Origin: Escherichia coli
GTDB taxonomy: Bacteria > Pseudomonadota > Gammaproteobacteria > Enterobacterales > Enterobacteriaceae
NCBI RefSeq assembly: GCF_003334335.1
Contig: NZ_QOWQ01000034.1
Direction: 5' to 3' (one strand)
Length of the DNA stretch: 50,400 nt
The position numbers and the translations under genes were made by a program. Below, in pieces: positions 31,599 to 31,624 of this stretch; the stretch's first letter is position 1; every line of letters begins with the position of its first letter. Below the pieces are notes generated by a model. That model was not told the origin of the DNA, made no database searches, and saw only the letters and a program-made list of their open reading frames with translations.

Positions 31599-31624
31599 AA
31601 AACGACACCTCGGGAGCAAACTTA
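31599..31624 (-). promoter_or_regulatory. Candidate sigma28 (LafS)-type promoter of lafA
   Basis: Minus strand TAAGTTT-N11-GTCGTTTT about 45 nt upstream of lafA ATG; partial match to TAAAGTTT-N11-GCCGATAA. Confidence 0.3.

Follow-up and report, generated by a model that had tools for sequence, protein, structure and literature searches.

The promoters of lafA, lfgKL(-lafW) and lfgMN in the lateral flagellar (Flag-2) cluster of E. coli are likely late promoters read by RNA polymerase containing LafS, with a shifted -10 specificity that would insulate them from FliA. In this model, the lafA promoter would be a late (class 3) promoter with the lfgKL(-lafW) and lfgMN promoters as its sisters. Each of the three is composed of two parts, yTTAAGttt and G-Y-C-G-Y-T-T-T-(A/T), separated by a non-conserved spacer of 12 bp (11 bp in Escherichia lafA). 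Judged from their sequences, the lateral promoters represent a conserved, system-specific variant of a known sigma-28 promoter type, located in a known gene cluster. In many bacteria a second flagellar system is present, and both systems come with a separate sigma-28 and anti-sigma factor. A -10 variant that replaces the flipped base, together with changes in the sigma pocket, provides a concrete hypothesis for the separation of the two regulons. The main interest would lie in a subfamily of group 3 sigma factors able to dispense with the -11 adenine.

Two-part promoters in the Flag-2 locus

The window, the whole 50.4-kb stretch of E. coli DNA analysed here, contained the Flag-2 locus according to the RefSeq annotation of the identical region of E. 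coli FORC_081. Positions 21000-45500 showed 100% identity to FORC_081, and at least 80% of the region was carried by 1051 of 5426 complete E. coli genomes (about a fifth). The genes in the window were arranged in the order lafU, lafT, lafS, lafFEDCB, lafA, lafZ, lafW, lfgL, lfgK, lfgJ to lfgB, lfgA, lfgM and lfgN. The lateral flagellin gene lafA (30639..31553, minus strand) was assigned from the annotation of the 100% identical FORC_081 region, and lfgK (34878..36254, minus strand), which encodes hook-associated protein 1 of the lateral system, was assigned from the annotation and the alignment of LfgK relatives. The gene for the lateral-system anti-sigma-28 factor, lfgM (44170..44448, plus strand), was annotated as FlgM, and its product would be the matching anti-sigma factor for LafS. 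The annotation and phmmer identified lafS (26032..26748, minus strand) as a gene for a FliA/WhiG-family sigma factor, and LafS matched the FliA structures of E. coli and P. aeruginosa with a phmmer E value of about 1e-30. The cognate lafS and lfgM genes were both located within the same cluster, and LafS is the presumed reader of the lafA, lfgK and lfgM promoters. In FORC_081, the Flag-2 fliI ATPase gene lfiI (L001 40523-41860, corresponding to the window from about 49522 to beyond its end) contained an internal stop and was therefore listed as a pseudogene in the annotation; given this stop in the identical FORC_081, the lateral system may be silent or non-functional in this strain.

The lafA promoter (31598..31626, minus strand) consisted of the -35 element TTTAAGTTT (31626-31618), an 11-nt spacer and the -10 box GTCGTTTTT (31606-31598). 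Most of this site was covered by the segment 31599-31624, which reads TAAGTTTGCTCCCGAGGTGTCGTTTT on the minus strand and precedes the lafA ATG by 45 nt. The promoter of lfgK(-lfgL-lafW) (36286..36315, minus strand) contained the -35 element TTTAAGAAT and the -10 box GCCGCTTTT, and the lfgMN promoter (44103..44132, plus strand) contained TTAAAGTTT and ACCGCTTTA, with a 12-nt spacer in both. All three sites in the window were 32-45 nt away from the start codons of lafA, lfgK and lfgM. The first-pass annotation had predicted sigma-28-like promoters with TAAAGTTT-like -35 sequences before these three genes; such -35 sequences were present as TTTAAGTTT (lafA), TTAAAGTTT (lfgM) and TTTAAGAAT (lfgK), and the promoters themselves were borne out by the conserved two-part sites described below. 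In Escherichia, the intergenic region between lfgJ and lfgK was filled with two REP/BIME-like palindromic repeats (window 36300-36560), which were not found in Citrobacter, and the LafS-type lfgK promoter was located between these two repeats and lfgK.

The three sites were also recovered from the window with a matrix derived from distant clades. This matrix was built only from clades outside the Escherichia/Citrobacter/Enterobacter/Leminorella cluster, and both strands of the 50.4-kb window (100.8 kb) were scanned with it. The lafA site was the best match in the window with a score of 28.1, followed by the lfgK site (23.9) and the lfgM site (19.2), and the next distinct site scored 14.0. The maximum scores over 200 first-order shuffles had a mean of 14.5, a standard deviation of 2.5 and a 95th percentile of 18.7, which was exceeded by each of the lafA, lfgK and lfgM sites.

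Conservation and location of the boxes

The alignment of LfgK relatives provided 56 loci with 10-kb flanks, with one genome per species. These loci included ones from Escherichia, Pseudocitrobacter, Citrobacter, Phytobacter, Leminorella, Pseudescherichia, Enterobacter, Dryocola, Buttiauxella, Cedecea, Mangrovibacter, Serratia, Budvicia, Vibrio and Shewanella, and the retrieved set also included Burkholderia, Caballeronia and other distant loci. Genes were placed in the loci by BLAST with the window proteins, and lfgM was recognised as the gene flanked by lfgA and lfgN. In 14 clades, ranging from Escherichia to Vibrio and Shewanella, the same two boxes with a variable spacer sequence preceded lafA, lfgK and lfgM, whereas they were absent from the loci of Burkholderia, Caballeronia, Methylophaga and other distant bacteria. 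At lafA, both boxes were kept across 12 clades while the spacer varied. The signature was thus conserved across genera, and the suggestion that it is specific to the lateral (Flag-2/LafS) system held up.

The consensus of these sites was yTTAAGttt-N12(11)-G-Y-C-G-Y-T-T-T-(A/T), derived from 117 sites in 33 units, with each gene-by-clade combination counted as one unit. The weighted counts out of 33 were y-T(33)-T(30)-A(29)-A(33)-G(27)-t-t-t for the -35 element. In the first half of the -10 box, G reached 30.7, the pyrimidine was T in 24.8 and C in 8.2, and the following C and G reached 33 and 32.7. In the second half, position 5 was C in 20, T in 12.7 and A in 0, followed by T (29.8), T (29.5), T (25.4) and then A/T. 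None of the 117 sites had A at position 5 of the -10 box, and the spacer was 12 nt in 105 of them and 11 nt in the other 12. The selection of sites by an iteratively refined matrix inflates the apparent conservation somewhat, an effect controlled for by the cross-clade scan and by the strict-pattern count given below. Each gene also had its own flavour of -10 box that was kept across clades, mostly GTCGT for lafA, GCCGC for lfgK and GTCGC for lfgM. The lfgK site appeared as CTTAAGRAN-N12-GYCGYTTT in most of the enterobacterial, Vibrio and Shewanella loci examined, the Citrobacter clade retained the upstream lfgK site as TTAAGAAy-N12-GCCGCT(T/C)TT, and the lfgM site was kept across clades as T(T/A)AAGTTT-N12-GYCGCTTT. 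The lafA spacer (window 31607-31617, minus strand) was 11 nt in Escherichia, compared with 12 nt in Pseudocitrobacter, Citrobacter and almost all other loci; as read from this comparison, the Escherichia spacer represents a lineage-specific loss of 1 bp that would restore the canonical sigma-28 spacing.

The boxes were closely tied to these three genes. A search of the 56 loci (1.06 Mb) with the strict pattern TTAAG-N14/15-GYCGYTTT returned 63 matches, 59 of which were upstream of lafA, lfgK or lfgM: 54 were within 260 nt upstream of the annotated genes, and 5 more preceded lfgM genes that were too divergent for BLAST. The same search in shuffled loci gave 0-1 matches (about 0.1 expected). The strict pattern can serve as a sharp search pattern for annotating LafS regulons and for finding members outside the cluster. 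Strict matches were also observed in two Vibrio loci (L037 16815-16842 and L038 15385-15412, both plus strand), about 335 nt upstream of an ORF resembling fliD_L. In two Cedecea-like loci (L034 13231-13258 and L041 12875-12902, both minus strand), the 3' end of lafW contained an antisense match with no obvious downstream ORF, which may represent an antisense promoter or chance.

The -10 box, competing readings and LafS

The canonical sigma-28 consensus is TAAAGTTT-N11-GCCGATAA (PMC2859248). The lateral promoters were similar to canonical sigma-28 promoters such as those of fliC and aer in their two-part octamer architecture, in the TAAAG/TTAAG plus TTT of the -35 element and the spacer of 11-12 nt, in the G at -15 and the CG at -13/-12, in their placement before genes for flagellin, hook-associated protein and anti-sigma factor, and in the A/T tract upstream of the flagellin promoter. 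The -35 elements of the three window sites agreed with the canonical TAAAG(TTT), and T2, A5 and G6 of this element were found across clades in 33, 33 and 27 of the 33 units, respectively. The spacing of 11-12 bp was within 1 bp of the canonical value of about 11 bp, although the lateral spacer is usually 12 and the canonical one 11. The canonical G(-15)C(-14)C(-13)G(-12) was also present, with T often at -14; single changes at -15/-14 are tolerated by sigma-28 (PMC12784957). The difference was concentrated in the downstream half of the box, where the lateral promoters had C/T at -11 instead of the flipped A and T instead of A at -9/-8. The canonical -11A followed by TAA did not occur, since there was no A among the 117 sites and positions 7-8 were T. 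In E. coli, the -10 box of fliC was the canonical GACGATAA, whereas the counterpart box of lafA was GTCGTTTT. The cross-clade consensus therefore agreed with the earlier remark that the -10 region is systematically unlike the canonical GCCGATAA.

Other promoter types did not account for the three sites. No canonical site of the form TAAA-N15-GCCGATAA was found in the window, and no sigma-54 box (TGGCAC-N5-TTGC) was found at the lafA, lfgK and lfgM sites. Pairs resembling the sigma-70 pattern TTGACA-N16-18-TATAAT were represented by 3 weak examples in 31500-32050 against 2.2 expected, with none at the flagged lafA site. An alternative register that places the A of TTTA at -11 needed a spacing 5 bp longer than the canonical one and was rejected on geometry.

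A more conservative reading treats the sites as ordinary, degenerate sigma-28 promoters at which FliA and LafS are interchangeable and the replacement of ATAA by TTT only tunes promoter strength. In its favour, the canonical consensus recurs in the -35 element, in the spacing and in the G-C-G of the -10 box, most of the canonical DNA-contact residues are retained by LafS, and deviations are tolerated at natural FliA promoters, as in aer GCCGACAT (PMC2859248). This reading is nevertheless unlikely because drift would not lead every clade to identical non-canonical bases: A never occurred at position 5 in 117 sites, and T6-T8 were kept from Escherichia to Shewanella. Moreover, canonical sigma-28 flips a single non-template base, -11A (PMC12784957), and it is around the pocket for this base that LafS shows family-wide changes. 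The boxes could instead be the binding site of a regulator encoded in the cluster, LafZ or LafK, rather than sigma contacts. Although lafZ is the divergent neighbour of lafA, and conserved upstream boxes by themselves do not identify the binding protein, two boxes held at a fixed 11-12 bp with a free spacer and no dyad or direct-repeat symmetry make such a site extremely improbable. Both boxes also resemble the sigma-28 octamers and lie 32-70 nt from start codons in most loci, and LafK-type activators work with sigma-54, whose boxes sit elsewhere in the cluster.

The first-pass annotation had offered another account, in which CGnTTTACnGG(n)TA is an element used rather than a -10 box and common to lafA, lfgM and the segment 36262-36279. 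The three quoted strings were indeed present, once each, as TCGTTTTTACAGGGTATC (31588-31605, minus strand), CCGCTTTACCGGAGTAAC (44125-44142, plus strand) and CACGATTTACCGGTAAGG (36262-36279, minus strand), and AACCGG also directly followed the true lfgK -10 box in Escherichia. The literal motif CGNTTTACNGG matched twice in the window (lfgM and the quoted lfgK string) against 0.36 expected; 4 of 100 shuffles reached two matches, so the motif was barely above chance, and it fitted lafA only with a 1-nt insertion. A distinct element of this kind is highly improbable, since the motif is itself the -10 box: it shares its CG with GCCGATAA, and this CG lies as far from the -35 element as in canonical promoters (spacer 11-12). 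The CG and TTT(A) parts were conserved, whereas the "AC-GG" columns contained 0.06-0.37 bits across clades (0.06-0.34 bits at positions 10-13) and C-GG was confined to Escherichia and close relatives. The strings at lafA and lfgM belonged to conserved promoters, but the one assigned to lfgK did not, the true site being 20 nt upstream. The quoted lfgK string CACGATTTACCGGTAAGG (36262..36279, minus strand) was part of the 5' leader and not a promoter, as it overlapped the Shine-Dalgarno sequence AAGGA (36265-36261); the quoted site CACGATTTACCGG abutted the Shine-Dalgarno sequence, had no -35 partner and was not among the matrix-scan matches, and the string was replaced by unrelated sequence in the Citrobacter clade. 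At the orthologous loci, therefore, the two-part boxes were conserved, and neither "AC-GG" nor the lfgK string was.

The preferred reading, recognition by LafS with a shifted -10 specificity, was examined against the structure of the canonical sigma factor. The open complex of P. aeruginosa sigma-28 has the -10 element (-15)GCCGATAA(-8), in which R97 reads the G bases at -15/-14, and R80 and D87 contact -12 and -13 (PMC12784957). Only one non-template base, -11A, is read by flipping, and Y76, the backbone of D66 and the specificity loop hold it in place; on the template strand, -11T is turned out onto H100, D93 and R148, and R101 and R104 contact the backbone (PMC12784957). LafS, a paralogue with about 30-35% identity to FliA (estimated by eye from the alignment), had altered pocket and region-3.0 residues. 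In an alignment of LafS from 9 clades with the FliA of E. coli and P. aeruginosa, the equivalents of P. aeruginosa Y/F76, R80, R82, D87, D93 and R97 were kept. The family-wide changes included Q at position 36, Q/H at position 40 and A/T in place of S224. The specificity loop (64-72) was changed from YDAxxG to Y-GxPD with the loss of D66, and in region 3.0, R101 was replaced by Q and R104 by H. Among the 50%-identity cluster representatives of 1.84 billion proteins, the roughly 17 best full-length matches shared this LafS signature, whereas the other sigma-28 relatives mostly had D66, R40, R/K104 and S224.

These changes fit a shifted -10 specificity that would separate the LafS and FliA regulons, as a correlation between the sigma residues and the -10 box that rests on two structurally characterised canonical FliA proteins and unannotated cluster representatives. 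In the proposed mechanism, the G-Y-C-G half, which matches the extended -10 together with positions -13 and -12 of GCCGATAA, would presumably be read by the retained equivalents of R97, R80 and D87. In the downstream half, Y-TTT replaces A-TAA and places a pyrimidine at -11, the canonically flipped base. The remodelled specificity loop and the region-3.0 changes may shift the -10 specificity of LafS accordingly, and the shifted specificity would prevent overlap between the late regulon of the lateral system and the genes that FliA controls for the primary flagellum. A bolder version is put forward tentatively, with rather less than even confidence: LafS-type factors would make up a specificity subclass of their own within group 3, using GYCGYTTT without the near-universal -11 adenine, the shortened loop and Q101/H104 would let a pyrimidine or T-run nucleate melting, and the lateral and primary sigma-28 regulons would be orthogonal in one cell. 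The sigma-70 family does contain members, the ECF sigma factors, in which the flipped -10 base is not A. The lateral boxes would resemble ECF-type promoters in having a -10 element without A at the position where melting nucleates and a specificity loop that sets the base preference. Unlike ECF sigma factors, LafS belongs to group 3 and has regions 2, 3 and 4, and the flipped base on the lateral boxes is hypothetical.

Lateral regulons in other bacteria and the surroundings of the lafA promoter

In Plesiomonas shigelloides, the FliA_L regulon comprises fliC_L, flgMN_L, flgKL_L and the operon from fliD_L to lafTU, as determined by RNA-seq, qRT-PCR and lux fusions (PMC11242183). The fliC_L, flgMN_L and flgKL_L genes are the same operons that bear the motif in E. 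coli Flag-2. On the basis of their location and this regulon, the three window sites almost certainly serve the cluster's own sigma-28, LafS; the assignment as LafS-dependent late Flag-2 promoters was concluded from the sigma-28 geometry, the gene set, the Plesiomonas regulon, and a window with no canonical site and no sigma-70 site at the flagged position. The lateral hierarchy described in Vibrio parahaemolyticus, Aeromonas hydrophila and Plesiomonas shigelloides uses sigma-54/LafK for the earlier genes and the lateral sigma-28 for the late genes (PMC11242183, PMC4481668, PMC3658858). In the window, perfect sigma-54 -24/-12 boxes were found before lafB (TGGCACGCCTTTTGC, 30381-30395, minus strand) and lfgB (TGGCACGGCGATTGC, 43308-43322, minus strand), which fits a hierarchy of LafK/sigma-54 followed by sigma-28. 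A sigma-54 box with one mismatch (44967-44981, plus strand) also preceded an ORF starting at 45017. The boxes before lafB, lfgB and this ORF imply control of the middle genes by LafK/sigma-54.

The same LafS-type boxes were present in the lateral loci of Vibrio and Shewanella as in E. coli Flag-2. The lafB...lafTU operon of E. coli had a sigma-54 box and no LafS-type site, whereas the equivalent operon of Plesiomonas responds to FliA_L. Judged from the promoter sites, the late regulon differs between lineages because the fliD_L-like ORF of Vibrio has a LafS-type site and E. coli lafB has only a sigma-54 box. The papers covered by a full-text search contained no promoter consensus specific to lateral systems and did not spell out how the two late regulons stay separate, although older papers may already list these promoters. 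Stewart & McCarter in 2003, Ren et al. in 2005 and Wilhelms et al. in 2013 reportedly noted sigma-28-like sequences in front of late lateral genes. Should the consensus already appear in such older work, the contribution of the present analysis would still be its quantification across genera and its connection with the recent structures of the sigma-28 open complex.

Additional features were observed around the lafA promoter. An A/T tract, GAAATTTTTTTAA (31634..31646, minus strand), was located upstream of the lafA -35 element and was conserved in the lafA loci, nearly all of which had an AAAAWTTTTT tract about 8-12 nt upstream of this element. The tract resembles an UP element and may function as one. 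A similar A/T tract was seen upstream of the -35 element of E. coli K-12 fliC (L058 285-298). Downstream of the promoter, GTA recurred at positions 15-17 (taking the first G of the -10 box as position 1) in the lafA and lfgM promoters of several clades, and it is in this fixed-position form that the trailing "TA" of the earlier motif partly survived. The recurrent GTA probably marks the start region, and the predicted lafA transcription start region, GGTA (31590..31593, minus strand), was placed from its position and the canonical sigma-28 geometry (PMC12784957). The sequence CAGGGT was located just downstream of the differing -10 boxes of both E. coli fliC (GACGATAAcagggtt, L058 324-330) and lafA (GTCGTTTTTAcagggta, 31590-31597, minus strand); this shared sequence was limited to the Escherichia/Citrobacter clade and could be due to chance.

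The lafA 5' leader (window 31554-31597, minus strand) was almost invariant between Escherichia and Citrobacter, though the promoter spacer varies. The fold of the E. coli lafA 5' UTR was no better than that of shuffled sequences (z = +0.41). Dryocola, Buttiauxella, Serratia and related clades had a different lafA leader (L026, L027, L042), and in leaders of this type a hairpin, GAACCUG-N5-CAGGUUC, was kept directly before the Shine-Dalgarno sequence, with z of about -1.5 to -1.9.
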